Shown: positions 17,135 through 57,236 of the stretch, one piece after another
How positions within the stretch are numbered: the first letter of the stretch is position 1
How the letters are laid out: each line of letters begins with the position of its first letter
NCBI GenBank assembly: GCA_050084515.1
Contig: CM114271.1
Span: forward strand, 5,580,001-5,644,000
Direction of reading: 5' to 3'
Source: Blasia pusilla
Taxonomy: Eukaryota
DNA: 64,000 nt
Made by a program: the position numbers and the translations under genes
The notes under the pieces: generated by a model
What the model saw: only the letters and a program-made list of their open reading frames with translations
The model's database searches: none
What the model was told of the DNA's origin: nothing

Positions 17135-26685
<9,551 letters not shown>

Positions 26686-35600: not shown

Positions 35601-38600
35601 CGCAACATGGCGGAGGAGAGCGTAGCCACCATGGGTTCTAGGTGAGGCCATGCCATAGAGACCTGCGCCTTCATATGACGCTCAGCTGCAGCCACCTACG
35701 ATTACTTGTTGGTCATGTCGTGGAGCCCATCATCAACGTGATTGGACTCGTCAGGGGCATGGACGTGTGCCTCAACATGGATGAGGATATGGTGCTGCAC
35801 CAGGAGGTTATAAGTGTGACTATTGTTAGAGGTATGGTTATACATGCGCCAGATGTTTCAGTTCACATCTTGAGTTACATCCGAACCGAGCGCCAGAGAG
35901 GGCACCAGAGCGAGTAGCCGGTTCGGGTGGGCCTAGAGATCGTGCACTAGGTGGTCCTGTTGGGGGACGAGGAGCTGGAGTTGCTCGACAGGGTGGTGGA
36001 GCTGCCCGTGGAGGAGGTAGAGTCCCACCACCTAGATGCATCGAGGGAGACGCCATGCATGAGGCTCGGATGGCTGCTTAGATACAGCAGCTACAGGAGC
36101 AGATTTCCGCTATGGCATTGAGGTCACCCAATGTCGGATCCGTGGCATCGACATCATATGGAGCAGCGAGAGATGTGGAGGATCTTGGTTGGATATGGGG
36201 GGTTGCCCACATGGAGGCCGCCGCAATTGTGAAGCGTGAAGCTGCTGTAGAGTTGGATCCACAGCAAGGGGAAGCCAGGAAACAAACCAGGCTTCCTCAG
36301 TCTTTCACGTTGTCCGAGGCCATGAGGATCCCATTGATGGGTCTTGATCAGAGTTCTTGGTGAGTTGGTGATGTTTTTGGTATGCAAGCAAGGAGGGCGA
36401 TGGGAGAAGCGAGTACAAAGAATCCTATTGCTGATGCTCAAGAGGGGCATATATCGAGCATGTTATTGGGGGCGACCACTGTTGTGTACAACGCTCCTTT
36501 ATTTTCTGCTTTTGATGTTATCACGTTGGGAGGTACACCCACCCGAGGTTTTTCGGTTGGCCGCTACGCTATGTGAGCGTGGAGTTGGAGTTCTTGCATC
36601 ACGTTCAAAGGTGATTGCAGAGGAGGTGATGGAACTGCCCTTGGAACGGATGCTTGGGCCGTCCATGTCATATTCATGGCAGATTGCGGCAGCTAGGATG
36701 GCGGAGATGCCCACTAGACCCGTGATAGAGCGTGCCATATCTTCTCCTAGTATTGTGTTGCTGGATAACTGGGGAGAGGTCTTTCAGTTGGTGCGAAGGG
36801 CTTTACCGAGAGTGGAGCATCCCCCCGATTTTTTGGTGGATTCTATGATGGATCTGGGTTGTCGATCACACGCAGTGAGGCACGATGATCGACCGCGTTG
36901 ATCGTGGTATATAGGATTGGAATGCCATGAGCAGCCTTTCCCACATGGCTGAGTTTTCTCGCTTCTCATGCACTCAAGGAGGCCGGACCTAGCTTGGTTT
37001 GGGAGGTTGGTGGAGCCCAATGTCGATGAGCAAGAGGGAACGATGGGATTCCCCACAGGAGTGACGACAGTACCATCACTATCGTAGGCATCACAACGTC
37101 ATGTCTTGGGTCAGGCGATGGACCTGAACTGCTTGACATGGATTTTCGGCTTAGGAGTAGCTGAGCAAGGTCGTTTGAGGATGCGACAGATCATAAAATT
37201 TGCGTTGATCAGCCCCATACCTACCGAGACGGTTGAGGCAGTGGTTGGGGGCGAGACCCGAGGAGATCGATACACTAGGGATGATTGGGAGAGACACCCT
37301 TCGACTTCTTGGGATGTTTTGCAGGTACGTCAGGAGATGATAACCACAACATCGAGGGTGGTTTCAGGTACTGCACATGGAGATGAGAGTTCTATTCTCC
37401 GAGACAGGGTTGGACCATAGCAACCACCGACATCCGCGTTGGAGAATCCTATTGTAGTCACGATGGAGACTTGGAAGCCAGATATGGGTCCTAAGTTGAT
37501 AAGAGGAGAGCGACGTCAGATACACCAATTCCTTAGAAGTTATAGGAGCAGTTTTGCATATAGTTGCATGATTTGGGTACGCTGAAGGGTCGAGGGATCC
37601 ACATTGAGTTGTCAAGTGACACGCCAATCTTGGACGACCCTACAGGTATAGTGACATGGAGAGGGATTTGATTCAAAGTAGGAGCCAAGAGTTGGTTGGA
37701 GAAGGACTAGTGGAGATGTCGCATAAGTAAGCATCTGCTACTATCATTCCCACCAAGAAGGATGTGCATGGCAACTAGACGGATAGGCGGATATGTGGAG
37801 ATTACCGACCTATCAATCGGCAGACGAAGTCCGATAGGTATGCCATGCCGACCCGTGAGGAGATCTTTGATGCGATTGGGCATGCAAAGGTCTTCAATTC
37901 ATTGGATTTGCAAGCCGGATGCCATCAGCTACCTATCAAATTGGAGGACAGACAGAAGATGGCATGTTGGGGCATCGATCCTCATGGGAAGGATTTTTTG
38001 TACCAATGGCGGTTCTTACCATTCGGGTTAAAGAACGTTATGGCTGAATTTCAAAGGGTTATTGATAGGATCTTGGCATGTCTGGATTTTTCTAGGTGTT
38101 ATATTGATAACATCGTAGTCTTTAGCAATGTCGTATAGTAAAATCAGCCAATGTGTAAACTCCTTCCTTGTTAAGTGTTAGAAAGAGTTTTATTAATATT
38201 AAATAAATTAGCTTAGGAAAAGGAAATTCACATATTTAAACCTCTTTATGGTGCCTCTTTTATGCAGGCCCAACTTTAGGAAAAAGAGATAATAAATAAA
38301 AGATGACTTTATAAAAGTAAAGTAGTGAGGTTGGTGTTTTAATGAAAAGAAAAAGTAGGCTTGGTTGGTGGCTAGGTTAGTTGGGGTAATTTGGAAAATA
38401 TCAAGTGGATAAAAGAGGATATTTTGGAAGAGATAAGAGGAAATCTATTTGTGTTAAAATGTGATTGGCTAAACCTTGAGAGGAAGCCATGTGGCACAAA
38501 ATAAGATTAGCTATATTTCGTACTCTTGTGGATCACTTGTGAGTATATAAAGAGGATGGAACTTCAAGGTTTCATCACCTTTTATTCCACATCTTGAGTC

Positions 38601-39689
38601 TCTCGTGTCACTCTTGAATGTATGGCTTTGAGATTTTTTGCTCTTCCAATGAGAGTGGATCATCCGTCTTGGAGAGTAACTTGACCATGGTCTATTCTTT
38701 GAGAGGTTTCTAGAGTGTGGTGTGTGTGTGGAGATGAGAGGTTTGTCACCTTAGAAGAGTTTGGTCATACTAAAATAGTGAATGTTTTGGCTTGTTACTT
38801 TCCCAATGAGAGTGGATTATCCCTCTTGGGAGAATAACTCCGCCAAAACTTATTCTTGAGGAGAGTAGAGAATGTTTGTCAAACATGGATAGGGATGGAG
38901 CAGGAGTTGTGACCGACTTTCCTTTCCTCAATCCATACCATGTCTACCACTGGTTCACTCACTATTTAGTTTATCATTTTCGAGAGGCGTTCATGAACCA
39001 TGTCATTCAATCTCCAACTCCGGTGATTCTTCCTATCGTCACATATTGAAGGACATGGGATTGTGCTTTGTATGTCCTTATATAACGATCCATGGACATC
39101 AATAGGCTTGCTCAAGTAGGGTTTAACACTGGTTGTACTATCTTCCTCGTGTACAAGCGTAAGGTAGTTTATAGGGACTTTATAGTTAGAAATTTTGGGG
39201 TCCGATGTTACGAAGAAGTGATCGCCTCGACACTTTCATTTGTGATACCTATCGTGAGAGAATGGAGAGTATACATAATAATTTTGTATTGAAAAAGGAG
39301 AACTTCTTAGAGAGTTCACCTTGCATCGACCATGTCTGCCGCAGCTAGAAGGCCTACCCTTACTCGAAGAAAGGCTCTCGACATGACAATGTCACATTTG
39401 AGGAGCATGAGCGACATCTAGAGGAGATGCTTCGACGATTACAGTTATATGGGCTGAAGCTACATCAAGGCAAGTGCAAGTTCTTCTACAACTAGATTGA
39501 GTACTTGAGTCATACGATATACCCAGGAGGCCTTGGTGTGCAACAGACGAAGATAGAGGCTATTTCACGCATTCTACGCCCTACAGATATGAGTCGAGTT
39601 CGTGCATTCATAAGATTGGCAAACTTCTATCGACAGTACGTCAAGGGTTTCAGTTTGATTGTAAAGCCGCTAACCTTGATGACCAAGGT
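32609..39689 (+). mobile_element. Degenerate, 3'-truncated relative of the DNMT-bearing Ty3/Gypsy element
   Basis: Starts TGTCAC. Gag contains MFQHLEGVPMDDYHEF (35073) and two decayed zinc knuckles (~35705-35855). PEVFRLAATLCE...SIVLLDN lies at 36540-36770. An internal deletion at ~36800 removes the protease and DNMT motifs I-VIII, but DNMT motifs IX-X remain (MGFPTG...VLGQAMDLNCLTW, ~37010-37150). RT (MPTREEIFDAIGHAKVFNSLDL...YIDN, 37845-38128) resumes after 39388. Confidence 0.85.
38129..39388. mobile_element. ~1.26-kb solo LTR inserted in the RT of the 32609 element
   Basis: Begins TGTCGTAT and ends ACATGACA (TG...CA with imperfect inverted ends), with a TATA-like gagtatataaag at ~38543. 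The host RT (..VFS / ..TFEEHERHL) continues across it. A direct repeat caatgtc overlaps both junctions, so the exact TSD is ambiguous. Confidence 0.7.
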
Positions 39690-40155
39690 CGTCGTATGCC
39701 TACTCTCCTTGAACATCAATCTTAGTATTGGGGAAGCGTACGTTCAGTAGGACACACTCTCATCACCAACCTGCACCCAAACACACTCACGTTAGTCTGG
39801 CTTAGGATCAAGCGGCCTTCCAACCCACCGAGTCCTCAACTTGGCATCTCATCTAGCTCAACCTTCCCTCATTCCTAGGTTCCCTACACAGGCGAGCCTT
39901 CTGAGACTTGGGACAAACTTTCTGGTTATTTCGGGCATCTGAAACGGCCTTTGTGCGCCTAGCGGTCCCAACTGTCCAACAGACCTTGCATGAGCCCCGA
40001 ACCAAGACTCAAAAATATGAGTCGTAAGTTGGAATCCAATAGGGATCTCCGAAATCCCTCTATTGAACTTGGTTTGGGTTTTGAAGCCCAACACCAAACT
40101 CACGATCCGTTCTGTGCCCTTGGGTCACCACGCAGCGCCCAAAGTGGGGTTTCGG
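39690..40155 (-). mobile_element. Partial LTR (3' part) related to the nested chromovirus LTR; truncates the 32609 element
   Basis: gtcgtatgcctactctccttgaacatcaatc...gcgcccaaagtggggtttcg is a diverged reverse complement of the last ~470 bp of the LTR 52491-53511. Confidence 0.8.
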
Positions 40156-40719: not shown

Positions 40720-42463
40720 TTATGTCGACGTCTCACCATTTCTTCCTCCTCTTCCCCTACCTCTTGTCACGCGCGTCCCACCTCCACGAAGAATAGTCCA
40801 ACTCAACATCAACTTCACCATCATCAGTTTCTTGTGTTGGTTGTGTCGAAAACATCTCCCACTCTCTCTTGAAGAATCCAAAGAGTTCCTTCTGCATTCG
40901 ACAAGGGTAATAGTATGTTCGAGGATATCCGCCTTCAGTCCTTTCAGGAATATCTTGCCAAAAGAAAGTGGCAAGATCAATTCGAGTCTCTTCAAAACAA
41001 GCCCATCCATCAATGGATTTTGATGGTGGTTTAGCACAAGTTTTCGAGTTGTGTTGAGGGCGTCTCAAACTTCTTGTAAATTCAACCCTTGAGCAAAGAA
41101 GAAGTTTTCCGCCTCTCGATTTTGGAGATTAATGGTTGTTCCGTGGATAAGCTCTCCTCGATCGTACATGTCAATGAAGCGAACCAACCACGCTTCCATT
41201 GCTCGATTAATCCTCCGCTAGCAAGGGATTTCTGCTTGAACCACCCCTTCTGTGTTCATTTCGGGGTTATAGTTCGATCGAGGGCTACGATGTCCCAAAC
41301 TTAAAGTGAAATTTTCTTGCTCTTGGGTTAATTTGCGATAAGTGGGTGATGTATTCTCATGAAGAGCGCGGAAAGATATGCCGAAAAGGTGATAGAGTCT
41401 TCCTCACCAAGCTTGTCTAGAAGTTGGACACTTGTGAGATAGTAGCATGGCCTTTTGAAGACAATATGGATGCCAATAACAAGCTTTACATGTGTCTCTC
41501 ACGTAACATCCTTCTGCAATGATGGGGTTAAAGCATATCATGCATTTGGGCCAGTTGTTTGGCATGAGGGCCCCTCCTTCACATACTGCAATTGCCTTCA
41601 TTCAATCCGGAAGATCTTGCATTGGTGTGTTCAGATTAAGAGGCGTTGGTGCCAACATCATAGAGGCATAGTTCGCAACGTTTGGATCTACGACATTGTC
41701 CCATACTGCACGTAGAGCTGGAGGCCACAATTGCTCGATAGGTTGAAATAAGATCATATCAACCTTCTTCACGAGACGAACCTCAAGTAGGGTTGTCTCA
41801 GGGGTGAATCCTCCCACGTGGCCTCTTGCTCTCCATTGCAACAATTCATCCATTTCTTGATGTCATCTTGCCATGATGTTCTCGTATGCTCTCCTCCACT
41901 ACTCTGTGTGGTCAACCATTACAACTCTTTGCCTTCTATGGAGGTCATCTCTGGTAATAGATTCATTCAAAAGCCTCTCCATCTCTTTCTTCAATCTGAT
42001 GTGCTCCTCACATAGCTGTTGATACTTCCTCTTCAAAACGTTGAATTCTGCGGCCAAATCAAAATTGCGTTGGGAATTTGTTACTAAACTCTCCAACTAT
42101 GATAGACGAGACATTACCTCTTTATTATCTGGAGCACTCTCCCCATGAAAGGTTTGGGGAGGAGCATCGCTATGCATAGGGCCATCAGAATTCTCCCCGG
42201 GCTCATCAAAGCTCGTACTATGACCTACATAGAGGTTATTCAAACCATCTCATCTATTCTCCGCCCCTATCTGTGCTCGCCCTTCATCTCCACGCTCGTC
42301 TTGTATATATTCTTCAGCACGACGATTTCTTCTTTGACCATCCAAGGAAGATAGTATGGATCCAAGGCTCTTTGACAATCCACCTTTCTTATAAAAGCAT
42401 GATGAAGCTTCCACTCTTGCTTGTTTAAAGTATTGTCGTGGTCTTCTACTATCTTCTTCTCTT
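40720..42463 (-). pseudogene. 3' part of a decayed ORF with a coiled-coil segment and a RING-like zinc finger; 5' part at 56813-57236
   Basis: CMICFNPIIAEGCYVRDTCKACYWHPYCLQKAMLLSHKCPTS (~41413-41544) has RING-like Cys/His spacing. A coiled-coil-like segment FNVLKRKYQQLCEEHIRLKKEMERLL lies at 41899-42096. There are many stops. Confidence 0.5.
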
Positions 42464-42940
42464 TGTCACATCTCAGTAGCCGATAGGTCGAGATCTATCG
42501 TAGGTAGGGCGTAGGAGCCAGCGGACTATCTTGAGCATAACTTTGTCCCACGATGTCGGATGAGGTTGAGGATAGGTCCATTGTGTCAGGAACGTCGTTT
42601 TTGACAACTTTCATGTTGAGGTCTTTTATAGCCGGGTGACTTGTTGACCAGGTCACCCGCCCCTGGTAACCTGTGCGCGGGTTACCAAGGGAGGGCTATT
42701 TTTAGGGGAAGAGCCTTTTGGCTCTTCCCAACCCTATATAAGAGAGGAAGATGGCTTTTCTAAGCCATCTTTCTCATGTTGGGCCGTTGGAGCACCTCCC
42801 TTGTATGTGTGTGAGCTGGGACTAGGGTGCTAGCGTCCGGATTCCTTGATAGCACAGGGTGGACGAGGCTCGATATGCCGATGTAGATTGAGGAGTGGAG
42901 TTTTAGGCCGGGTGTGCCGTTTTTACTACTCTTTATTTTT
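42464..42940 (+). repeat. Terminal repeat A1 (LTR-like, ~477 bp) with TATA box
   Basis: About 95% identical by manual count to 56194-56672; tatataag at 42735. Confidence 0.92.
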
Positions 42941-43870
42941 ACATGAGAAAGATGCCAGGGGGCTGGCGGGAATTCATTTTTTGCAGGTAGGCAAGCAAGT
43001 TGCCTTGTTTGGGAGCCCCAGGAGACGCGTGTGTTGCGGGTGTTGTTCATTTTTATGTTCGGAAGGCCGTGGACGGAAGCACTGTCCATTTTTCTCAGAT
43101 TTTGCTGGTACGAATTGACGTGGGACAGCAGCCGAGTGTAGTGTGTGGTGGAGCGTCGGGTGTACGCGAGTGAGGGTGTCGAGAGAGAGAAGAAAAGAGA
43201 GCTGACGGGCGGCGACGGGAGCTGACGGGTGGCGACAGCGGACAGCGGACGGCGGACGGCGAGCCCCCCTTCCCCCTCTCTCCTCTCTCCTTCCGTAGGC
43301 AGGCGCGCAGGGAGGCCACGGGCCGGACGGGCCCCCCCCCCACCGTCAACATGCACTCATGTGGAGGAGTGCATGTTGACGGTGCAGCAAGTTGGAGGGC
43401 GTGATCAGGTTACCCATTCGATTCACTTATCGTGTGTGATTGAGAGTGATGGGTATCGGGTAGTAGCTGGTGCTAGATGGGATCAGTGATGGTGACGAGT
43501 GTAGATTCTTTTCATGTGTAGTATGTTGGTGGATATATGGCGGTTGTCGAGTAGTGGTCGCGTGTATGACCCTAGAGAGTGTTGCTAGGTTAGGTGAGTC
43601 AGTTGGGAGGCTCATGGTGAGCCCGAGTGTTGAGCGTGCGTGAGGGCGGGTATGTCATCATGAGATTGATGTTAGCAGAGGTGAGCTAGTGAGGCGTGTG
43701 GGAGAGTCTTGGTAAGTCTGAGTGCTTGAGCGGGTGAGACAGGGTTTGTCATCATGGCGTTCTTCCAGGGTTCGGAAGAACGGGGTAGTACGAGCAGTAG
43801 TAGTGGTGTGACACGGAGTGGAGTAAGATACCGAGGGGTTACCAGTGAGGAGCTCCCTTGACATCCATCC

Positions 43871-45003
43871 ATGGTTGGATCGTCATCACTAGACACTGGG
43901 TCTGGTGACGAGATCACAGATAGAGACAGTAGTACGTGGCAGGAGATGGACGAGATGGGCCATCGGGGCATGCGTCGTTTCTCGGGTGAAGTGGGCACCA
44001 TTGACTTAGATGATTTTATCCAGGAGTTCGACACATGGTGCGACTTCCAGGAGATACGGACCCCGACACGGTTCAACCCTTTCATGGCATGGAAGGGGTT
44101 GTTCCAGCACTTGGAGGGTCCCCCGATGGATGACTACATGGAGTTTCGATCACTATATTCAGTAGAGATCGATGCTTGGAGGATGTATTGGGCTCCAGGG
44201 TATGTGTCCACTAGTGGTCGCGAGGCATATGATGGGATTGTTAGAGGAGAGAGACCCATACCATCAGCCCTGAGACTAGATGGAGAGGAGGGCAGTGAGA
44301 CAGGCGATGTGGCAGAGACCTCTGGTGGTAGAGGGCTACCTAGCTTCAGCCCCACAGTGGAGTTCTTCTGACAGTTGGGGAAGAGCTACCAGGGCGTACG
44401 CACCAACAAGCTGAATAGTCTACAGGATTTTCAGCGACGATCGGGTGAGAGTCTGAGAGAGGCATTCACACGCATGAGGAGGCTGATCATTGCTACGTTT
44501 GGAGTGACTGAGGTGCAATCAGTCCAGTATTGGTACGGGGTTCTGGACCGAGAACTACGGAGGAGAGTCCGAGATGTGGTGCTGATTCACACAGCGAAGC
44601 CCACATTGAAGGTGGTCTTTGAGTTGTCTGAGCGTATTGAGCTCAACATGAGTGAGGAGCAGGTAGTGACCGCTGGATTTTCTCGAGAGTCGACGGGTCC
44701 ACGAGCGACGGTGATCCCACAGGTGCCACAACGAGCACCAGTTCCACGGGAGCGGGCCAGTGTGCTAGAGAGTAGGGCGCGTACCGTGAGCCTATGAGGC
44801 AACGACCTACACCTACATATGTTGCCCAACAGGGATCGATGTGGTCTTGTTGGACGTGTGGAGGGGCCCATAGGCAGAGAGACTGCCCACAGCATGGGAG
44901 AGGACCACCAACGCCTCTGATTGCTCAGGAGCCACTGAGGATGGCCCCACCACAGCACTAGTGTGACTATTGCCACAGATATGGTCACACTAGGGAAAGA
45001 TGT
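43871..45003 (+). pseudogene. Gag with two zinc knuckles (decayed)
   Basis: ORFs 43871-44371 and 44375-44797 are in the same frame, separated by a TGA. Knuckles CWTCGGAHRQRDC (44848-44886) and CDYCHRYGHTRERC (44962-45003). Confidence 0.85.
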
Positions 45004-45869
45004 TTTGACCTTCGCCGAGGGGCACGTCCAGAGCTAGGCCGAGGGCCTGGGGGCGGTCGTCCTGGAGGAGGTTGGGGAGTTCTTCTTGGACGTGGTGGTA
45101 GAGGACCACCACCAGCCAGAGGAGATGGAGCAGGAGCACCATAGCCGACACTTCTCTCACGCATCGATCAGTTGGAGCAGAGGATTGCTGTCATGACGAT
45201 GATGCAGCTTAGGGAAGGCACGGAGCTGCGAGCAACTAGTGTGACTCTAGCTTCTACCTCTTACCCTGACCCGGGTGAGGATCTCGCCATTATGGGATTT
45301 ATGTGTAGTGCAGCCCAGGTTGAGGCACCTGCAGTGGTGACTCGGGGTGCTTTAAGAGGCACCGAGCCATCGAGAGGTGGAGTTGAGATTGACCCACAAG
45401 AGGGGACCGATGGGCGGCAGGCCAGGGTTCCACAGTCGTTCACATTGTCGGAGGCACTACACACACCATTGATGGTGCCTTGACGACTAGCAATGCCTAC
45501 AATTCAGGCACCTACGTGGACGTCACGAGGAGCTGGAGTGAAAACTCCTATGCCGGCTCGAGTGGAGTCAATGTCGACCATAGTGTTGGAGGTGGGCACC
45601 AGAGTGAGTCAGACTCCACTATTTTCCGCCATAGAGTTGGCGACGTTGGGAGTTGGACCAGTTGAGGTGTTCCGGTTGGCCGCCACGTTGTGTGAGCATG
45701 GAGAGATGATTGCTTCTTGTTCAGAGGTAGTTGAGGAGGTGGTGGACTTGCCCTCAGAGCCGGTGCTTGGGATGTTCCCCACAGAGTCATGGCATGCGGC
45801 GGCGGTGAAGTTGGTAGATATGCCAGCTCGATCGGCCATAGAGCAAGCAGTGGTGACACCTGGAGTAGT

Positions 45870-46290
45870 GTTACTGGATAACCGAGCTGGAGTATTTTGC
45901 TTGGTTAGTCCAACGGGGACAGTAAACCACCCGCAACGCGTCCTACTTGATTCGGGAGCGCAACCCTTGATGTTAGGGAAGGCGGCGTGTTTAGCGTTGG
46001 GGTTACGGAAGGCGGACATTGAGCCTTGTCCCTTCCAGATACAGACCTTGATTGGGGGCGTATCACCCACTCAGTATATGACTCGAGAGGAGATTGTTGT
46101 CAGAGTCCAGCCAGAGCATGCAACGGATAGTGCTATGGTGCGCACACATGCGATTACGACACCAGCTGAGTCGTACGATGTGTTGGTGGGGAGTACAGTG
46201 TTATATCCCCTAGGATTCATCCTTGACTTCTAGGAGGAGACTATTGCTTATCGGCCAGGATGGCGGTCAGGTGACAGCCGGATGAGTGAG
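45870..46290 (+). pseudogene. Retropepsin (aspartic protease) domain
   Basis: RVLLDSGAQPLMLG (DSG at 45949-45957) and C-terminal YDVLVG...LGFILDF. Confidence 0.88.
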
Positions 46291-46659
46291 TTACCCGTGC
46301 AGTTTGCGGGACAAGGTGGTCGATCACGAGGCGAGTCTGTGACCACGTTGGCAGCTTTCACAGGTAGTGTTAGCTGGCCAAGAGAGTTTTTGGAGGGGAA
46401 CGGACATGCGGAGGATGTCCCAGTAGCGGATAGTCCCACGGAGAGACAGGCCATGGCCGGTGTCTCTTCCCATGTTGGCGAGGCCTCTTCACCATTGTGG
46501 GGTACGACTCGAGAGCTACAGAGGAGTGCCGACGACCTCGTGAGGCAGGCGTGGAGTCATGTTTTTATCCCAAAGCCGGGAGAGTCACGTGGCGATCGGG
46601 ATCTTAGAGTGGAGACGATGACCCCACTAGATACCATACCTGTTGTGTGGCAGTGCCCA

Positions 46660-47625
46660 GAGGAGGGTGTTAGGGTGTTAGATCTCTTTGGAGGGATAAG
46701 CACCGGATTGGATGTACTATTGCAGGCGGGCATACGGGTGCATCAGTACCTTTATGTGGAGAGAGATGAGACCGCGCGGCGAGTGTCATTACGTCACGTG
46801 GCGAGATTGGTCTAGAGGTATCCTGAGTTGTTTTCGGTATCTGCAATACGGGGATACCAGCATACGCTACCCGCCGACATCTCTTTGGTGGGGGCGCAGG
46901 ATCTGGATAGAGTTGGCACCATTCATTTGGTGATTTCTGGATGGCCATGTCAGGGTCATTCATCAGCTGGCTGAGGATTTGGATTGCAGGATCCGAGGTC
47001 ATGGATGTTTTGGGAGATGTTGCGAGTATTACGACACTTGCAGGAGAGTTAGATATGTTCTCCAGCGTATATTTTGGAGAACGTGCCATTTTTGGGAGAC
47101 ACACGTGCCCGTGTGACGAGTGTACATCAGGTGAGGTCTTGGTTGGGACCTGCTGTGTTGTTAGATGCAGCGAGAGTTGGGTCACGTGCCCATCGTCCAA
47201 GACTATGGTGGACAAACCTGATACCATCAAAGGTACTGAGTCGAGTATACAGTGGAGTCCAGAGAGCACCACATCTCACAGTGGATGCTATTTTGGGCTC
47301 AAGGCGTCGATTTCAGGTGGTGACACGGTAGACCACCGTTGGCCATGGCCAATAGGGTGGGGGAGTTGAGGGCAGCCTTACCTACGTTGGTGAGCTTCCC
47401 AGCATCCCTTTCGTCAAGGAGGTGCCTTTCGTCAAGGAGGGCCAGGCATGATATGGGATAAGGTGATCGGAGCATTGGAGGAGCCTACAGTAGATGAGCG
47501 CGAGCGCGCCATGGGGTTCACTACCGGTACTACGGCGGAGCCAGGGATGACTGAGGCATCACGGAGACAGGTGTTGGGGCAGGCGATGGACCTCAACTGT
47601 CTCACATGGGTAGTCAGCCTAGGTA
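46660..47625 (+). pseudogene. DNMT3-like C5 cytosine DNA methyltransferase domain embedded in Pol
   Basis: In the protease frame: motif I VLDLFGGISTG (46675), II YLYVERD, III ADIS, IV ISGWPCQG (PC at 46945-46950), VI YILENV (ENV at 47077-47085) and VIII DAARVGSRAHRPRLWWTNL (to 47220). After a frameshift come IX-X, ERERAMGF...SRRQVLGQAMDLNCLTWVV. In-frame stops occur at 46813, 46972 and 47050. Confidence 0.9.
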
Positions 47626-48544
47626 TAGCTGAGCAGAGGTGGATGCGAGTGTCATCCATACTGTCACGTCCACGAGTTGCACCATTGCCTACAGGGTCTG
47701 TACAGGCATTGGCTTGGGGCGAGACGAGGAGAGATAGGCACCCATGGACTTCCTCGGATGTCGTTCGAGCAGAGAGTGCAAAGGCGGCTAGAGTAGCACA
47801 TGTTCATTTTTTGGATGTGGAGCATGGTGTAGGAGGTCAGAGTGGAGTGGCTGTTGCGGAGATGGCTAGGGTTGCTACATAGCAACCAAAGCCGGAGGTT
47901 ACGTCCTCTCCGAGTGAGGTCACGATGGAGACTTGGGAGCGTGTGATAGGTCTCAAGTTGATAGGAGGAGAGCGACGGCGAGTTCATAGGTTTCTGAGAG
48001 GGCATGTTAGTTGTTTTGCCTTCAGTATGAGAGACTTGGGTACGCTGAAGGGTCCCGGGATACGGATTGAGTTGGCTAGTGATACGCCGATCTTTCGTCG
48101 ACCCTACAGGTATTCTGATATGGAGCGAGCCTTGATTTGAGCAAGAGTCGAGGACTAGTTGGAGGCAGGACTTGTGGAGTTATCACATGGGGAGTATGCA
48201 TCCGCCAGTATGTCATGCCGGCGAAGAAGGATATGTATGGCAATTGGACGGATAGGCGGATGTGTGGAGATTACCGTCCTATCAATCGACAGACGAGGTC
48301 AGACCGGTACGCCATGCGTACTCCTGAGGAGATCTTTGATGCGGTAGGGCATGCAAAGATCTTCAGTACTTTAGATCTCCGTGCTGGCTATCATCAGCTT
48401 CCTATCAGGTTGGAGGATAGGGAGAAGACAACATTCTGGGGGATAGATTGGTTCGGGAGAGATTGCTTGTATTAGTGGCGGTTCTTACCATTTGGGTTGA
48501 AGAATGCGCCTGTAGAGTTTCAGAGAGTGATGGATAGGATTCTG

Positions 48545-51500
48545 TGTCGCGACCCTCATAACCAAACAACACCAAATACGCGCCAAGCGAAACATCAGAA
48601 CTCAAAGGAACTCACGCCGCGAGGTTTGCGCTTTGGAGAGGCGTTTGGTAGAGTCTCTTGGAAAAGTCTAAGAGACGAAACGCGGAACAGAGTTGTGCGT
48701 TTCATGCGTTAGTGGTCGCGACCAGGAAACCTAGACCAAACGCGAGCCGAGACTTGAGATGAGTTGAGTCTTGGAGGTTGGTTGCCAAAGAGGTGAGAAC
48801 CAGTTTGGAACATGACTAGCGTTTGGGAGAATCTGACTGTGTTTAGGACCATAACGTTGAGCTCCAAGATGCGTTCGGGACAAGTAAGGGCGCGTTGGAA
48901 AGCTGATCTTGAGACGCTTCCAACGCACCAAAGATCTCAGCAAACGCATAAGTACAGGCTGAGATATTGGCCGAAAACAATTCAGAGAGCAATCGGGTTG
49001 AGGGCCAATTGGAGGGGCCCGGGTGTCTTTCCCTAAATGTAGGGGGCCCCGGAGATCCCCAGAAGTACTAGTAAGGGGAGTACCTTCTTTGAGATGTCTC
49101 GGGAAATGAAACCCCACTTTGGCGCCAAACGGCGTTTGAGGCACGGATGAAACGGGAGTTTGGCGCGGAAACCCAAACCCAAACCTGATCCAAGGGAGTG
49201 GACTTTTACGCCACACTTGGATTCCAACCGAGATTCACCGTGCGAGTCTTGGTGAGGAACTCATTGGATGTTCATCGGACGATTGGAACCGCTAGGCGTG
49301 AGACGCCGTTTCAGGTTCCTGAACCGACCAGAAAGTCTGTCCCAAGTCTTTCGAGACTTGCCCGTGTTGGAAACCGCGAAACTAGGAAGGTTGAGCTTGA
49401 AGAGAGAGTCCGAGACGAGAACTCGGAAAGTAATCCCGCTGATTGATCCAAGACCCGACTAACCGGTGCGTGTTTGGATGCAGATCAGCGTTGAGAGCGT
49501 GACCTCATCGAACGCACGCTTCCGCAACAAACAAGATTAACGTTCAAGGAGAGTAGGCGCACGACACGTGGTATCAGAGCTAGAGGCTCCATTTCCTTGA
49601 TGAGCGTGAACTTGGGGTCGTTGAAGATCTAGACGTTTGGGGAGAACTCAAGGTTGCCGGAAGACCGCGACGCCGAGGAGGAACGCAAGAGGCGAGGAGG
49701 AGATCTGAGAAAAGGCGACGACTCGCAAATGGCGACCAAGGACGAAGAACCGAGGAAACCGCGAGTCAAAGCAAAGAAGCCAAGAGATTTAATCAATGAC
49801 GGACCGAGAGCCGGAGGTGGAATTTTGCGACTCGAAGTGCGAGTCCCGGACATGAGGATGTTCCAACCGAAAATCTTTCCGCGGGACCTTCGGGTCCAAA
49901 CTTAAACAATCCGGCCTTTTATACCCAAATGATGGGATTGATGAAGGTGATGGCGGACCAGATGGCTGAACAGAGTAAGGTGATCTCGGAATTCAAGTCA
50001 AAGGAGACTCAGAGCATACGAAAGCAAGAAGTCGACCGACACCGAAAGGAGATGGCCTACTCATGAGAAAGAGTTGTTTGCGGTGGTTCATTGCTTGAGG
50101 AAGTGGCGTCACTATTTGGGACTTCACAGACTCGAGTATTCACCGATAACATATCGCTCAAGTATTTTGAGACCAGGATCGCGTGGACGCCAAAACAACC
50201 GGTGGCATGATACCTTGGCGTTGATGAATGTGGAGCTAATCCACAAGCCGGGAAGGACAATGTCATTCCAGATCGTTAAGTCGCAGGATGAACACATGCC
50301 ATCGGCGACACAAGTGTTGAGAGCAATGTTCCCTAATGAAACAGACACTGGAAAGAAGGATTCGTGAAGGATACATGAAGGATGAGCAAGCGAGGAGTAC
50401 CTTGGGAAGTTAAAGCGGGGAGAAGGTGGCCAATCTGAGTTTGAGACACGGCTTGCTAAGGTTTAAGCAGAGCAGGATCTATGTAGGCCAAGGCAAGCTA
50501 CGAACCAAGGTGTTTGTTGTGGAATGTCATGATGGACCTTTGGCGGGACACAAAGGGGAGAAATCCACTCTTGCTGTTTTGTCTAAGAGGTTCTTCTGGC
50601 CCAACATGAAGGAAGATGTTGCTCAATATGTGAAAACATGCGTGACTGCCAAAGTAACGCGTGTCTTATGCGAAGAAACAAGGTTTACTTCATCCTTTGC
50701 CAATCCCGGAGGGACCCTTGCAAAGCATTAGCATGGATTTCATTACGAGTCTTCCAGAATCTGAGGGATACAACGCTATACTTGTGATAGTTGATCGGTT
50801 TAGCAAGTTGGGGAGGTTTGTGCCGACGAGAGAGTCTGCGACGGCCTACGCGACTTCCCGACTATTCCTGGATGGTTGGTGGCGTGCGCACGGATTGCCT
50901 AGGAGCATTGTGTCCGATCGGGATCCGAAGTTTACCAGTGCCTTTTGGAAACATCTATTCAGGAGGTTCCGGACCAAACTCAGCTTTAGTACGGCCTTCC
51001 ATCCTCAAACGGATGGGCAAACGGAAAAAGTAAACTCGGTCGTAAACCAATACTTACGGAATTACGTGAGTGCGGACCAAAGAGATTGGGCCAAGTGGTT
51101 AAGTATGGCTGAGTATTGTTACAACTCGACTAAGCATTCTGCAACCGGAGAATCTCCGTTTCTTCTGGCGTATCAAAGAGAACCAGAAGGGCCTCTTGAC
51201 TTAGCTCTTTCGAAGGGCAATACATCGACACACACTCGTCAAGCAACGGCGGAATGTTTGTTAGTGGAAATGCAGGAACGACAAGAGCGAGCGAGAGAAA
51301 GTCTCGCCAAGGCTCAACTAAGGTACGTAAAGCATGCTAACAAAAGTCGGCGCCATGTGAGTTTCCAAGTTGGGGAACAAGTGTGGTTGAGTGTTAAGAA
51401 TCTCACTCTTCCGAAAGAATTGTTCATGAAATTGTCACCAAGTATCTTCGGACCGTATGTGATCAAGGCAAAGCCGTTTGAGGATGTGTACACGTTGAGC

Positions 51501-53511
51501 CGCTAATCGAGTTCAAGATTCACTCGACTTTCCATGTGTCATTATTGAAGAAGTATCTTCAAGACAATGCGCCCGGAGCAAAGGAGGATGTTGAGACCAC
51601 AACCGGTCATCGAAATGAGGAACCGAGTTCGAGGTTGAGACTATTCTGCGCCCAGACGTAGGGGCCACCAAGCACGAGTACTTGGTCAAGTGGAAAGGCT
51701 ATCATGTGAAAGAGGCGACTTGGATTGCGGAGGCGGATCTAGAACATGCGCAAGAAGCATTGCGTGACTTCAGATGGATGCAAGAAAGGCACGTGCGTTA
51801 GTACATGGTGAAGCAATGGACATAACTTGTGACCGGAAAGCTTGGGCCGATAACCCGTTGTAACTAGAAAGGTTTAGTTGTTGCAATAAAGAAGACATGG
51901 ATTTGGAGATTCGATGCTTGTATTGTAATTTTGAGTTTGGTTTGTGCAAGGCAATGAGTAGTTCTTCATATGCTTAGGATGTAAGTCAAGGAGACCAAAC
52001 AATGAGTATTTGAGGTGAGAGCTTGTATTCAGATAAGGCATCTAGATCAGGACCAAGTGTTGAAGTACTAGCATTTGGGCTCGCCCTAACGTCGGCGGGG
52101 CAGATGAGTCTGTCTTGGGGTTTGTGGTGATCTCATTCATGTTTCATGACTGAACTTAGTGACGCGCCTAGGTGGAATACAGGTGACCCAAAAGTAGTAC
52201 GAGTTGGCTAGGTAGACAGGCGGTTGTTTACAAATAGTGAGTGAAGTGTTAGGTTGCAGACTTAGTGAGCTTATTTTGATAGTTAGATTAGTTTGGCAGA
52301 ACTAGTCTAGGCTCATCGTAGCGAAGCTAATAAGTCTAAGTGCCGCAAGCGACAAACCTAAGACTTAAGCCAAAAAGAGGAATGCGGGTTAGCTACGTAA
52401 CGCGATTACGTGTTAAGGGTCGGCTTCCCAGAACTTAACATCAATAAGGTTTGCGTTGATGAGGACATCAACCTTCTAAGGAGGGGTGAGTGTCGCGACC
52501 CTCATAACCAAACAACACCAAATACGCGCCAAGCGAAACATCAGAACTCAAAGGAACTCACGCGCGAGGTTTGCGCTTTGAGAGGCGTTTGGTAGAGTCT
52601 CTTGAAAAGTCTAAGAGACGAAACGCGAACATAGTTGTGCGTTTCATGCGTTAGTGGTCGCGACCAGAAACCTAGACCAAACGCGAGCCGAGACTTGAGA
52701 TGAGTTGAGTCTTGGAGGTTGGTTGCCAAAGAGGTGAGAACCGATTTGGAACATGACTAGCGTTTGGGAGAATCTGACTGTGTTTAGGACCATAACGTTG
52801 AGCTCCAAGATGCGTTCGGGACAAGTAAGGGCGCGTTGGAAAGCTGATCTTGAGACGCTTCCAACGCACCAAAGATCTCAGCAAACGCATAAGTACAGGC
52901 TGAGATATTGGCCGAAAACAATTCAGAGAGCAATCGGGTTGAGGGCCAATTGAGGGGCCAGGTGTCTTTTCCTAAATGTAGGGGGCCCCGGAGATCCCCA
53001 GAAGTACTAGTAAGGGGAGTACCTTCTCTGAGATGTCTCGGGAAACGAAACCCCACTTTGGGCGCCAAACGGCGTTTTGAGGCACGGATGAAACGGGAGT
53101 TTGGCGCGAAACCCAAACCCAAACCTGATCCAAGGGAGTGGACTTTGTACGCCACACTTGGATTCCAACCCGAGATTCACTTCGTGCGAGTCTTGGTGAG
53201 GAACTCATTGGATGTTCATCGGACAGTTGGAACCGCTAGGCGTGAGACGTCGTTTCAGGTTCCTGAACCGACCAGAAAGTCTGTCCCAAGTCTTTCGAGA
53301 CTTGCCCGTGTTGGAAACCGCGAAACTAGGAAGGTTGAGCTTGAAGAGAGAGTCCGAGACGAGAACTCGGAAAGTAATCCCGCTGATTGATCCAAGACCC
53401 GACTAACCGAAGTGCGTGTTTGGATGCAGATCAGCGTTGAGAGCGTGACCTACTGAACGCACGCTTCCGCAACAAACAAGATTAACGTTCAAGGAGAGTA
53501 GGCGCACGACA
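48545..53511 (+). mobile_element. Nested chromovirus (Ty3/Gypsy), internally deleted (no PR or RT), recent insertion
   Basis: LTRs 48545-49566 and 52491-53511 (TGTCGCG...CACGACA); TSD TTCTG at 48540-48544 and 53512-53516; PBS TGGTATCAGAGC at 49569-49580 (tRNA-iMet); PPT aaggaggggtgag at 52478-52490. Confidence 0.95.
50055..51775 (+). pseudogene. RNase H C-terminus, integrase and chromodomain of the nested chromovirus (frameshifted)
   Basis: HEKELFAVVHCLRKWRHYL; CHDGPLAGHKG; ISMDFITSLP, SIVSDRDPKFTS, HPQTDGQTEKVN; GPY; chromodomain EFEVETIL...EYLVKWKGYHVKEATWIAEADLEHA (~51625-51770). Confidence 0.9.
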
Positions 53512-53980
53512 TTCTGGCTGGCTTGGATTTTTGTACGATGTTACATAGATCATATTCTTATCTTCAGTTCCACGGTTGAGGAGCATGAGAGACACTTGGA
53601 GGAGGTGTTTCGGGGATTGCAGTTACATGGACAGAAGTTACATCTAGGCAAGTGCAGATTCTTTCAGGAGCAGATTGAGTACTTGGGACACACCATATAC
53701 CCGAGTGGGTTAGGCGTTCAGCAGACGAAGGTAGAGGCTATTGCGTAGATTCCACGCCCCATGATGTGAGTCGAGTCCGAGCATTTCTTGGAGTGGCGAA
53801 CTTCTATCGACGGTATGTCAAAGGTTTTAGTGCGATCGCAAAGTCTTTGACCTTGTTGACGAGACTTGATCAGGTTTGGTTGTGGGGGGATGATCAGGAG
53901 CGAGCATTTCAGGAGCTCAAGGATAGGTTGACGTCCTCACCCATTTTACAGAGACCGGTTAGGGGTCGCCCATTCTAGTT

Positions 53981-55800
53981 ACATACGGATTGGAGCATGT
54001 TGGGTCTAGGAGCAGTGCTTACTCAGAGGGATGACGAGGAGAGGGAGTTCGTTGTGGCTTACGCCAGCCGATTGAACAACATTGCCGAGGCAAAGTACAA
54101 CTCCTACGAGGGAGAGTGCTTGGCTGTAGTGTGGATTGTGGCACATTTCAGGTGCTATTTATTTGGTAACCCTTTCACACTTATCACTGATCATCAGCCG
54201 TTGAGGTGGTTGATGGAGTCCGAAAAGCTTATGGGCAAGCTTGCCAGGTGGGCTCTATTACTACAGGAGTATGAGTTTGAGGTGGTTCATAGGCCAGGTT
54301 GGTGAAGCAGGATGGGGATGGGTTGAGTCATAACCCATGTCCGAGTCAGAGAGACGATACAAGAGCTCGATGGCACGGAGAGAGTGATGAGGAGATGGTG
54401 CATGGTTGGCATGCATCTGCCTATCTTTGTTGGTTGACTATGGCAGGTCAGCCACACGTAATGACTCCAATGGTGGGGTTGAATGATGAGTCCTTAGATC
54501 CGGAGGTTAGTGAGGAGGCGACAGATGATCGTGATATCCATGATGACGTGGAGGTTGTGGAGTTCTTGCGCACTGGCGTCATTGCGAGTACAGTGAGTGC
54601 TAGGGAGCGGGATCGGATCCTACAGAGAGCCAAGAGGTTCAGGTGGGAGGGGACTCATATTTTGCGGGTATGGGGAGATGGTAGGATACGAGTGGTATCT
54701 CATCCTTCCCAGCGAGCACGTGTAGTGCAACATGCTCATGAGAAGTTGGGACATTTCGGAGTAAAGCGTACTTACAGCTTACTCCAGGTTCAGTATTGGT
54801 GGCGCGGCATGCATACTGGGGTACAGGAGTTTCTGGCCAGATGTATGGTATGTGACACAGTGCGAGCATCCTTCAATGCTCCCACTCCGCAGTTACATCC
54901 TTTGCCGATTATGGGTTTAGGGTATCGGTGGAGTTTAGACTTTGCAGGACCTTTGCCATTGACGAGACGTCATCACAGGTATGTGTTGGTCATGGTGGAG
55001 CATTTTTCCATGTGGATAGAGTTGGTGGCACTACCAGACAAGGCGAGCGAGGGAACAGCTTATGCGTTTCTAGATCGTGTGCTTAGTCACTTTGGTGCAC
55101 CGGCGGAGGTGTTGACTGAGCAGGGTACCGAGTTCAGGGGAGAGTTTCAGGCCTTGTGTGATGAGGCGATGATAGATCACCACACCACCTCCAGAGATCA
55201 TCCTGAGGCGGATGGGTTGGCGGAGAGAGTGGTAGATACGGTGAAGAGAGGATTGCACAAGTATGGCTTGCAGCGGGGACAGTTGAGGGAGTGGGACCTA
55301 CAGTTGCCATGGTTGGCTATGGGTTATCGCTTTAGTCGGCAGGCATCCTTGGCATCATTTTCACCGTAATTTTTGCTCTTTGGGAGAGAGCCAGATTTAC
55401 CTGCAGCGATTCGACGTGACATGGTGGAGGTGTTAGATGTTGATGATCGAGATGTGTGGGTACAAGCATGTTCTCAGAGGGCACAAGTTTTTCGTCGAGT
55501 TATGCCTATGGCCTTTGAGAACTTAGCTATTGCCCAGCATAGAGATACATTGAGGTACGCGACCATTCGTGGAGGAGGTTATCGTCCAGGGATTAGGAGG
55601 TTTCATCCTGGAGATTACGTGTATTTACAGTAAGCGGCATCCATGACGCTAGATGTCACTGCAGGGCGCACGATCCTACGTGTGCGCGAGGTATTACGGA
55701 CCGGAGTCCTCATGTTGGAGGGACGGGATGGTATGGTTTGGAAGGATCATGTGTGCAATTATGCGCCATGTTATCTTCCGAACGTAGATGGGACGGTGGA
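53981..55800 (+). pseudogene. RNase H and DDE integrase of the DNMT element
   Basis: HTDWSMLGLGAVL, VAYASR, YEGECLAVVW, ITDHQPL; HHCC (HEKLGHFG...CMVC); catalytic core WSLDFAGP / VLTEQGTEF (D>E) / DGLAERVV. Confidence 0.92.
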
Positions 55801-55834
55801 TCCGAGCTTGGCAGTGGTACCTGCAGGCTTGAGG

Positions 55835-55978
55835 TGTATGTTGTGCGGATCTGCGAGGGGTGCAGCCACCATGTTGGTATGTGATGGTTGTTCTCGAGGG
55901 TGGCATATGTCATGTATGACCCCCCCCCCTCTTGATGTGGTTCCCACAGGACGATGGATGTGTCTGAGATGTGTATAG
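55835..55978 (+). other. PHD finger at the integrase C-terminus
   Basis: CMLC-GSARGAATMLV-CDGC-SRGW-H-MS-C-MTPPPLDVVPTGRWM-CLRC is a C4HC3 pattern with the typical P-x-G-x-W motif. Confidence 0.9.
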
Positions 55979-56045
55979 GATAGTAGGTCATGTCAAAGAG
56001 ATGTGATATTTTCTATCTGGAGTTGGGGGGATCCAACTGCCAACT

Positions 56046-56056
56046 AGGGGGGCGGT
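56046..56056 (+). promoter_or_regulatory. Polypurine-tract-like sequence immediately before repeat B1
   Basis: A purine-rich, G-run tract (46046-type PPT pattern A-G-run-CGGT) directly followed by TG at 56057. Confidence 0.6.
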
Positions 56057-56812
56057 TGTGTGATCTCCATGTATATGTATGAGTTGATTTTTTGTACATG
56101 TGTGGATTGACCCGTGTGTGGGGAAGATCGGTGGTGTGGTGAAGATTTGACCAGCGATGTATATTGTGTAGCGATATGTATGCGCACGACAGCTGTCACA
56201 TCTGAATAGCCGATAGGTCGAGATCTATCGTAGATAGGGCGTAGGAGCCTGCGGACTATCTTGAGTGTAACTTTGTCCCACGGTGTCAGATGAGGTTGAG
56301 GATAGATCCATTGTGTCAGGAACGTCGTTTCTGACAACTTTCATTTTGAGGTCTTTTACAGCCGGGTGACTTGTTGACTAGGTCACCCATCCCTGGTAAC
56401 CTGTGCACGCAGGTTACCAAGGGGAGGGCTATTTTTAGGGGAAGAGCTTTTTGGCTCTTCCCAACCCTATATAAGAGAGGAAGATGGCTTTCCTAAGCCA
56501 TCTTTCTCATGTTGGGCCGTTGGAGCACCTGCCTTGTATGTGTGTGAGCTAGGACTAGGGTGCTAGCGTCCGGATTCCTTGATAGCACAGGGTGGACGAG
56601 GCTCGATGTGCCGATGTAGATTGAGGAGTGGAGTTTTAGGCCGGGTGTGCCGATTTTACGACTCTTTATTTTTGTTGTGTGATATCCATGTATATGTATC
56701 AGTTGATTTTTTGTACATCTGTGGATCGACCCATGTGTGGGGAAGATCGATGTTGTGTGGTGTAGATATGACCAGCGATGTATGTTGTGTAGCGATATGT
56801 ATGCGCACGACA
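56057..56812 (+). repeat. 3' terminus: B1 (56057-56191), gc, A2 (56194-56672), B2 (~56676-56812)
   Basis: B1 and B2 are ~135-bp direct repeats (tgtgtgat(c/a)tccatgtatatgtat...gcgatatgtatgcgcacgaca) that flank A2. B is absent after A1. Confidence 0.9.
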
Positions 56813-57236
56813 TCTTGGTCTCTTATCTCTTCTCAAAGAGACCCCTCATCCACATTGCCATACTGGACCTCCATATCCTTCATCAACTCCACGACTTTGA
56901 GCTAAACAAATATCTTGCTCACTAACTTCATCTTCCTCTTGGGGAGATCCTCGTACTTCCGACGCTATTGAATAAAACCTGATCCTTTGTCCAATCATTC
57001 TCTTCCACTTTCCTTGCAAATTCTCCAATTGCACGCTCCGGCCACTTAAGCCGCGACTTTTTGAACTCTCCTTTCAAAACTTTTGGGTCAATGGTGCTAT
57101 CCAAGCGCGCCTTCAATTTATCTACCCTGACGAATTGCGAGACCGTCTTCTTGTTCACCTTCGGAGGGATCTCTGGTGTTGGTATATCGAGGGGTTCTTC
57201 CGTCATCATGATTGTCGTGAGGGCTACGATCTTCAT
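56813..57236 (-). pseudogene. 5' part of the RING/coiled-coil pseudogene split by the 42464-56812 insertion
   Basis: ORF 56928-57236 plus decayed frames run to the junction. Removing one TCTT copy joins them to 42463 without an immediate stop (e.g. EEIRDQ|EKKIVEDHD). Confidence 0.45.

Follow-up and report, generated by a model that had tools for sequence, protein, structure and literature searches.

The window analyzed here, a 64,000-nucleotide stretch of Blasia pusilla DNA (GenBank assembly GCA_050084515.1, contig CM114271.1, positions 5,580,001 to 5,644,000 of the forward strand), carries at positions 46660 to 47625 a cytosine-5 DNA methyltransferase (DNMT) domain inside a Ty3/gypsy-like retrotransposon (42464-56812). 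Very probably, this is the decayed DNMT domain of a dead copy, a few million years old, of a family whose members encode Gag, protease and a DNMT3-type enzyme, then a leaky stop codon, and then reverse transcriptase (RT), RNase H, integrase and a PHD finger; its identity and the architecture of the family are the parts of this reading that we hold with the greatest confidence. The domain is an integral, selected and widely shared part of the element. Coordinates below are positions in the window, on the plus strand unless stated otherwise.

An initial annotation, made from the letters of the window, had recognized C5-methyltransferase motifs in their usual order, and both of our homology searches confirmed such a domain. 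When the frame from 46234 to 47394 was translated with X in place of stops, Pfam DNA_methylase (PF00145) gave a significant match (E value of 2.6e-9; 37.4 bits against a cut-off of 22) that spans the motif IV-VI part only. The whole domain is covered in three frames by an open protein from Calypogeia fissa (P0004; joint tblastn E value of 9e-165), residues 140 to 533 of which align with 46150-47322 (59% identity over 396 columns), residues 538 to 562 with 47330-47404, and residues 565 to 686 with 47424-47789. Motifs I to VIII occupy 46660-47322, and the target-recognition part with motifs IX and X occupies 47330-47625 in two further frames (47330-47404 and 47424 onward). The translation contains LDLFGGISTG (46678-46707), GWPCQG with the PCQ catalytic cysteine intact (Cys codon at 46948-46950), an intact ENV (47077-47085), AHRPRLWWTN (about 47185-47220), ERERAMGF (47497-47520), and RRQVLGQAMD (47562-47591). 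With motifs numbered from a DNMT3A alignment, the motif IV cysteine, the ENV glutamate, and motifs I, VIII, IX and X are all readable, in order, in the window copy. The protease and motifs I to VIII share one frame, as annotated, in an unbroken tblastn segment (44683-47322) obtained with Marchantia polymorpha protein P0007 as the query, and the domain lies between protease and RT.

Both sequence and fold agree with the proposal that the domain is DNMT3-like. Among solved structures, a phmmer search with P0004 returned DNMT3A, DNMT3B and DNMT3C first (E values of 8e-11 to 5e-9) and DRM next (4e-7 to 2e-4), followed by weaker matches to bacterial enzymes and DNMT2; at an E value of ≤0.01 the search found neither DNMT1 nor CMT. 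An AlphaFold model of the P0004 homologue (13-row alignment) reached a predicted local distance difference test score of 82 to 97 in most 10-residue blocks of residues 305 to 640, the lowest being 70, and was poor outside the domain. Among the Foldseek matches listed (33 rows, to rank 48), all were DNMT3A, 3B or 3C, with template modeling scores of 0.79 to 0.83 to catalytic-domain chains. Motifs I to X are colinear with those of DNMT3A. An assignment to DRM was rejected, since the motif order of DRM is rearranged and that of the window is not. A host DNMT3 pseudogene and an assembly chimera were also considered and rejected.

The copy in the window is dead, as had been annotated, with three in-frame stops inside the domain (46813, 46972, and 47050). 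The single frameshift of the annotation has to be replaced by two, near 47322-47330 and 47404-47424, because the alignment of P0004 needs three frames, and the reading frame of the whole host element shifts at least seven times (tblastn). The stop at 46972 is private to the window copy: nearly all other copies have another letter there (3308 of 3453 and 3005 of 3005 by depth). Window and family differ mostly by T or A in the window where the family has C or G, a pattern that would be expected from the decay of methylated cytosines. The two long terminal copies of repeat A, A1 and A2 (described below), have diverged by 5.4%, which corresponds to a few million years if a seed-plant substitution rate is applied. 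We also noticed an 18-bp tandem duplication (CCTTTCGTCAAGGAGG-type unit, present twice) near 47405-47440, in the target-recognition region, that gives rise to a repeated FRQGG in the translation.

The DNMT domain recurs in many other elements. A word-indexed protein search with the window domain gave 22 matches, 15 of them from Marchantia polymorpha (55 to 72% identity; several also with RT and RNase H) and the others from Calypogeia fissa (one), Sphagnum fallax (one, with rve), unnamed sources (four, including a DIRS-like protein), and a firefly DNMT3 (E value of 6.7e-8). An exhaustive HMMER search with P0004 returned 4631 representatives at an E value of ≤0.001 and 281 at ≤1e-30; many are polyproteins of 1000 to 3400 residues, and the named relatives include Closterium species. 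The kinship to a Klebsormidium retrotransposon DNMT that the annotation had pointed to was also recovered: Klebsormidium nitens KFL_013780020, a protein in which a Gag zinc knuckle precedes the DNMT, matched P0004 over the whole domain at 38% identity, with an E value of 9.3e-52 compared with about 1e-10 for cellular DNMT3. Twenty metagenome loci (L001 to L020) are 45 to 67% identical to P0004. The domain is thus found not in this copy only but in Marchantia, Calypogeia, Sphagnum, the metagenome loci, and two further remnants in the window. In Marchantia, Closterium, K. nitens and unnamed polyproteins it occupies the same position, and in metagenome locus L014 the open reading frames (ORFs) that contain it and its neighbors are uninterrupted, in agreement with its description as a Pol domain and not a passenger gene. 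These data indicate that the DNMT domain is a family trait and an integral part of the element, not an accident.

Scoring of domain layouts with single-sequence domain seeds on 212 proteins distinguished two arrangements. In layout 1, represented by liverworts, Closterium, K. nitens and a number of unnamed proteins, the order is Gag-(protease)-DNMT-RT-RNase H-integrase; in layout 2, which includes green-algal proteins from Haematococcus, Monoraphidium and Chromochloris, it is RT-RNase H-DNMT-integrase-PHD. The window element has layout 1 plus a PHD finger. We then built a maximum-likelihood tree (LG+G4) of 101 DNMT rows, with Shimodaira-Hasegawa-like approximate likelihood ratio test (SH-aLRT) values as the only support measure. 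Its rows were drawn from 136 near-complete domains and comprise all named proteins, the unnamed ones with at least one other domain (unnamed DNMT-only rows were excluded), one animal DNMT3 (P0024), and the first part of the window domain. The window groups with Calypogeia and eight Marchantia rows (SH-aLRT of 100), and the Marchantia rows form one clade within this liverwort clade (SH-aLRT of 99), as the suggested persistence of the lineage in land plants predicts; the land-plant assignment itself rests on the relatives of the element. The 74 layout-2 rows form one group (SH-aLRT of 96), and a split with an SH-aLRT of 90 separates all Gypsy-borne rows from the DIRS-like and animal ones, the two outgroup rows being long branches.

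The catalytic residues are almost invariant in the 101-row alignment: the catalytic cysteine is present in 100 of 100 filled rows, the ENV glutamate in 101 of 101, and each motif VIII arginine in 100 of 101. The full set of PCQ, ENV, motif VIII R-x-R, and motifs IX and X is kept in the window's own group. We compared nonsynonymous and synonymous substitution rates (dN/dS) by the Nei-Gojobori method in 22 copies (the window element, the second element in the window [element B, described below], and L001 to L020), with codons mapped via tblastn, stops skipped, and pairs with fewer than 40 codons or a dS of ≤0.05 removed. As would be expected of a selected domain, values were well below 1. For L014 and L015, whose DNMT parts are open (326 codons; dS of 0.26), dN/dS was 0.126 for DNMT, 0.063 for RT, and 0.18 for protease. 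Deep pairs, with saturated dS values above 1, gave medians of 0.20 for DNMT (26 pairs), 0.13 for RT, 0.18 for Gag, and 0.36 for protease, and the window element compared with element B gave 0.23 over the 119 codons of their shared C-terminal part. A separate observation concerns motif IV, which reads E-C in 56 of the 101 rows, among them layout-2 proteins such as P0038 and P0130 (Haematococcus), and P-C in P0004 and 35 others. Among C5 methyltransferases E-C is an uncommon reading, and the chemistry of these proteins may be altered.

The family is abundant and transcribed. Two DNA runs contained 44162 and 4907 contig pieces at a likeness of at least 88%; one of these runs may be the source sample, so the counts do not amount to independent support. 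Two stranded RNA runs with the same species label contributed 400 and 348 reads that covered 30 of 30 bins, and the first mate was nearly always on the minus strand, which in most stranded libraries corresponds to coding-strand RNA. Since only nine reads per RNA run were at least 99% alike to the window, the RNA comes mainly from other copies. Related copies are therefore transcribed in sense.

The DNMT part is separated from RT by a stop codon. An in-frame TAG CAA CCA occurs at 47880-47888 (TAG at 47880-47882), 81 residues after motif X, and the RT frame follows directly behind, in phase. Element B has the same nine letters at 37418-37426, and in the two window copies CA TAG CAA CCA forms an 11-nucleotide identical island with poorly conserved flanks. 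Calypogeia protein model P0004 and Marchantia protein models P0007 and P0010 end at an equivalent place, 78 to 81 residues past motif X. We examined 12 junctions, those of the window element, element B, and 10 metagenome loci; the stop is followed by CAR YYN, as CAA CCN or CAG TTA, in 11, and the remaining one, in L016, was not readable in frame. The consensus UAG CAR YYA serves tobamoviruses as the type I readthrough signal, also when UAG is replaced by UAA or UGA (text of PMC3542737); the window element, element B and L014 fit it exactly. In L014, a 9317-bp metagenome contig, a single TAG lies between two ORFs of 1369 and 1047 amino acids, both free of interruptions. The first encodes Gag-protease-DNMT (PF00145 E value of 1.8e-13; Asp_protease_2 at 22.4 bits, below the cut-off of 24.3), and the second encodes RT, RNase H, integrase and PHD (Pfam); no terminal repeats were seen on this 9.3-kb contig. 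The annotation had supposed that the enzyme would be packaged with RT. The DNMT lies at the end of ORF1 (Gag-protease-DNMT), ahead of the stop, and is therefore predicted to be made with Gag, not only with RT.

The surrounding element is an LTR (long terminal repeat)-type retrotransposon, as annotated: it has matches to RVT_1, Integrase_H2C2 and rve, and its TG...CA ends are flanked by a 4-bp target-site duplication, TCTT (42460-42463 and 56813-56816). The domain order is that of Ty3/gypsy (Gag, protease, RT, RNase H, and DDE integrase; by Pfam in the window, and by tblastn for RNase H, Gag and protease). Behind repeat A1 (42464-42940; 5' end TGTCA), Gag occupies 43946-45144, with residues 1 to 258 of P0007 at 43946-44731, residues 254 to 1099 at 44683-47322, and a frameshift near 44700; its CCHC knuckle (44776-44961) is in a different frame. 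The protease region (45484-46233) lies inside the tblastn segment shared with motifs I to VIII. Gag and protease were recognized through homologues only, their window translations giving no Pfam match. After the DNMT, a tail of about 80 residues (47626-47879; window translation and homologue ends) completes ORF1. RT is split into a first part (47919-48543; RVT_1 E value of 4.5e-12, and tblastn) and a second part with RNase H (53512-54299; RVT_1 E value of 4.8e-11; residues 864 to 1107 of P0008 at 53530-54299, tblastn). The integrase and C-terminal PHD finger follow at 54533-55972 (Integrase_H2C2, 2.5e-15; rve, 2.2e-12), with PF00628 at about 55835-55972 in the integrase frame (E value of 3.8e-10) and two stops between integrase and PHD; this part is 42.7% identical to P0038 over 485 residues (tblastn E value of 2.7e-107).

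The repeats are not arranged as LTR...LTR at the very ends, as expected of Ty3/gypsy, but as split direct repeats, A1-body-B1-A2-B2 (A...B-A-B). Repeat A2 (56194-56673) is 94.6% identical to A1 over 480 bp. It is flanked on both sides by a repeat of about 140 bp (56055-56194 and 56674-56815, 91.5% identical): B1 (56055-56191) ends in ACGACA and is followed by a 2-nucleotide spacer (56192-56193), and B2 (56674-56812) forms the 3' end of the element, ...ACGACA, directly before TCTT. At the inner B1-A2 joint, the 3' end of the element therefore meets its 5' end with two letters between. Three bases 5' of B1 lies a purine run, AGGGGGG (56046-56052), a candidate polypurine tract; a run of like kind is also found 5' of B1 in L020. 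The A...B-A-B order recurs in L020 and in L018, which has the same insertion site as L017, and the partial copies L002 (which ends at the contig edge) and L013 (A-B at the 3' end) are consistent with it, while L010 is without A2 and L006 has B without A. TGTCA...ACGACA ends with 4-bp duplications are present in all three complete copies (TCTT in the window, CATA in L020, and AAGG in L018). The split-repeat unit A...B-A-B is the transposed unit. Inspection by eye revealed no TGG-type primer-binding site after A1, and no tRNA gene was found in the window.

Several other features lie in the window. RT of the DNMT element is interrupted by a nested, internally deleted LTR element of another family (48544-53511), whose LTRs (48544-49566 and 52490-53511) are 97.2% identical over 1031 bp and which carries an integrase and a chromodomain-like ORF (ORFs at 50658-51506 and 51619-51801; tblastn). 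LTR-like fragments of this family (70 to 77% identity) are also present at 39691-40154 (minus strand) and 30415-30559, where they truncate element B and occur farther upstream. Element B (34938-39687) is a diverged, truncated second member of the DNMT family with 66 to 77% nucleotide identity (blastn); it lacks the equivalent of P0004 residues 139 to 502 and keeps the C-terminal part of the DNMT at 36785-37339 (tblastn). A third, strongly decayed DNMT remnant on the minus strand (10297-11057) matches P0004 residues 271 to 528 at 31 to 38% identity (E value of 2e-25) and retains an ENL remnant in its ORF. AT-rich tandem repeat arrays with a unit of about 180 bp (72 to 98% matches) occupy 12689-15648 and 32030-32607, the former beginning directly after an integrase fragment (11545-12663) related to the DNMT element. 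The sole clear host gene noticed is represented by ABC transporter exons (ABC_membrane and ABC_tran; 22593-26760, minus strand).

From the arrangement of the family we propose the following working. ORF1 (Gag-protease-DNMT) would be the main translation product, and occasional readthrough of UAG in its CAA-CCA context would yield the full polyprotein. The methyltransferase would then be made at Gag levels and enter the particle within the precursor, from which the protease may or may not release it. Using S-adenosylmethionine, it would methylate cytosines de novo on the double-stranded complementary DNA (cDNA) of the element, or at or around the new insertion, and the PHD finger of the integrase may read the state of the histone H3 tail and steer the landing site. 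New copies would arrive premarked, do less harm to the host, and allow the lineage to last longer. On balance, we expect live copies to encode an active de novo DNA methyltransferase; self-marking of cDNA as its purpose is a tentative idea that we favor less than its negation. More speculative still, and in our judgment unlikely in its entirety, is a single ancient Gypsy-like lineage reaching from green algae to land plants, equipped with a writer (DNMT3-type), a reader (PHD), split repeats and readthrough, live in liverworts including Marchantia polymorpha, and methylating its own cDNA or insertion sites so as to add transposon-made methylation to bryophyte genomes.

Several observations weigh against parts of this account. 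Eight of 11 junctions end in CCC or CCT and not in the consensus YYA, and we infer readthrough from conservation, just as packaging, substrate and benefit are what we infer from the architecture. Shallow pairs give dN/dS values of 0.56 to 0.62, as would be expected if copies decay once inserted, which implies that most of the copies seen are dead, and a DNMT part without stops was found only in L002, L014 and L015 among the 22 scored copies. When the K. nitens Gypsy DNMT was expressed in yeast, no methylation was obtained, a result called inconclusive in the text of that study (PMC5890265). The yeast result would also suit a domain that is selected for something other than DNA methylation, acting on RNA or providing the Gag-protease precursor with a module for assembly or for binding to DNA or chromatin. 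RNA methylation has been raised for DNMTs borne by long interspersed nuclear elements, such as SymbioLINE-Dnmt (text of PMC5890265), and the green-algal group has E-C in motif IV (56 of 101 rows), which active C5 enzymes do not usually have. The window's own group, however, keeps the whole catalytic set described above, and both the fold and the top-scoring matches point to the DNA enzymes DNMT3A/B/C and not to DNMT2; we therefore regard such a function as unlikely.

A one-off capture, in which a fragment of a host DNMT3 or of another mobile element landed by chance in one copy as a passenger or nested chimera, can draw on the fact that chimeras occur here, this being a damaged copy with one true nested insertion (48544-53511). 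It is contradicted by the same position and frame in 15 Marchantia proteins, Calypogeia and Sphagnum, by the 20 metagenome loci, the two further window remnants and the open ORFs of L014, and by dN/dS well below 1, and we consider it extremely improbable. The tree leaves the K. nitens row unplaced between the layout-1 and layout-2 groups, a further point against our account. With K. nitens, the Gag-protease-DNMT-RT group and the RNase H-DNMT-integrase-PHD group mutually unplaced, and with land-plant relatives found in liverworts and Sphagnum only, the liverwort elements could be due to horizontal transfer from green algae into bryophytes, not to vertical survival of the charophyte lineage. The absence from other plants is weak evidence, because transposon proteins are often masked before annotation. 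The nesting of the Marchantia clade (SH-aLRT of 99) in the liverwort clade (100) is expected for descent within hosts, and architecture, leaky stop and split repeats are shared across deep divergence (dS above 2); transfer thus seems improbable to us, if less so than a domain without DNA methylation. The reading of the feature as the decayed DNMT3-type domain of a Ty3/gypsy-like family with a putative leaky stop remains the one we prefer.

The purpose of retrotransposon-borne cytosine methyltransferases has been a standing question since 2018. The earlier sole streptophyte example was an alga with few copies, and here the family is high copy and transcribed in a liverwort-like genome. Because annotated relatives are present in Marchantia polymorpha, which has good genetics, the question of function becomes testable there: whether cDNA or insertion sites are methylated, whether the PHD finger steers integration, and whether the leaky stop sets the DNMT:RT ratio. 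The results suggest an old origin and a wide distribution in the green lineage for Gypsy elements with both writer and reader, which bears on the share that transposons, besides their hosts, have had in shaping methylation landscapes. There is also a risk for annotation: the Marchantia polyprotein pieces are annotated as "hypothetical protein," one has a UniRef name starting "DNA (cytosine-5," and such pieces could be miscounted as host DNMT genes.

Among known systems, the nearest is KnitGypsy-Dnmt3 of Klebsormidium nitens, reported in 2018, in which a Gypsy polyprotein contains a domain of DNMT3 type that is under purifying selection and was placed within DNMT3 (de Mendoza et al. 2018; text of PMC5890265). 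Like the window element, it has an unrearranged domain of this type in a Gypsy-type polyprotein under purifying selection, and the legend of Fig. 4c in that paper describes DIRS-like repeats with Gypsy-type domains, an arrangement comparable, as far as the legend goes, to A...B-A-B. It differs in its charophyte host and few copies, compared with liverwort and moss relatives and high copy number here, and the passages of the paper that were searched, figures and supplements aside, do not mention a leaky stop, a PHD finger or 4-bp duplications, all of which occur in the window element (the stop being putatively leaky). The SymbioDIRS-Dnmt3 elements of dinoflagellates also bear a DNMT3-like domain, and it is only for their enzyme that the text reports de novo CG methylation in yeast; they are DIRS elements, only distantly related to Gypsy (PMC5890265), whereas the window element has a DDE integrase. 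The outgroup row closest to the Gypsy-borne clade in our tree is P0022, an unnamed DIRS-like protein in which DNA_methylase is combined with Dam. Cellular DNMT3 enzymes (animal DNMT3A/3B/3C, and the moss DNMT3 in the text of Yaari et al. 2019, PMC6453930) share catalytic fold and motif order with the window domain at about 23% identity; unlike them, it is without PWWP or ADD, lies in a Gag-protease polyprotein, and is accompanied by a separate PHD finger on the integrase.

Histone readers in Pol, proposed to guide insertion, are also described for chromoviruses and for algal retroelements of Chlamydomonas such as Gypsy-7a_cRei and REM1, which have PHD fingers (texts of PMC9940879 and PMC8557442). 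As described there, these elements are without a methyltransferase, and the legend abbreviations for Gypsy-7a_cRei name PHD before integrase, whereas the PHD finger of the window element is C-terminal to integrase. In EpiLTRs, according to the text of the preprint, an LTR element likewise contains both a DNMT and a chromatin reader; the DNMT, sister to DNMT4, is joined by an adenine methylase and a chromodomain (bioRxiv 10.64898/2026.05.21.726589). In the same text, "streptophyte Gypsy-DNMT3" is regarded as an acquisition of its own, with the 2018 work as the sole citation. As a side point on nomenclature, the text of PMC12344493 names streptophyte DNMT3-bearing elements "LTR Copia," citing the 2018 paper, which says Gypsy; the window domains are Gypsy-type.

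With the tobamovirus type I leaky stop (UAG CAR YYA; text of Firth and Brierley 2012, PMC3542737), the window element, element B and L014 share the stop and the following six letters exactly, while eight junctions of the family end in C or T and not A, and readthrough here is putative. The stop ahead of the polymerase resembles that of gammaretroviral gag-pol readthrough, which lies after Gag and not, as in the window, after protease and DNMT. Split direct repeats in the order A1-body-B1-A2-B2, in which both element ends meet internally, are known from Ngaro and PAT-like DIRS elements, which use a tyrosine recombinase and are not known to make a target duplication; the window element, unlike these, has a DDE integrase, TG...CA ends, and 4-bp duplications. 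The literature searched, which did not extend to the supplements and figures of the 2018 paper, contained no description of DNMT-bearing retrotransposons in liverworts or other land plants, and later papers within it mention Gypsy-DNMT3 only by citing the 2018 work. In that literature the land-plant range and high copy number, the putatively leaky stop after the DNMT, the combination of PHD with DNMT, and the target duplications around a split-repeat unit seem to be unreported, and the window element is a land-plant member of the published Gypsy-DNMT3 kind.

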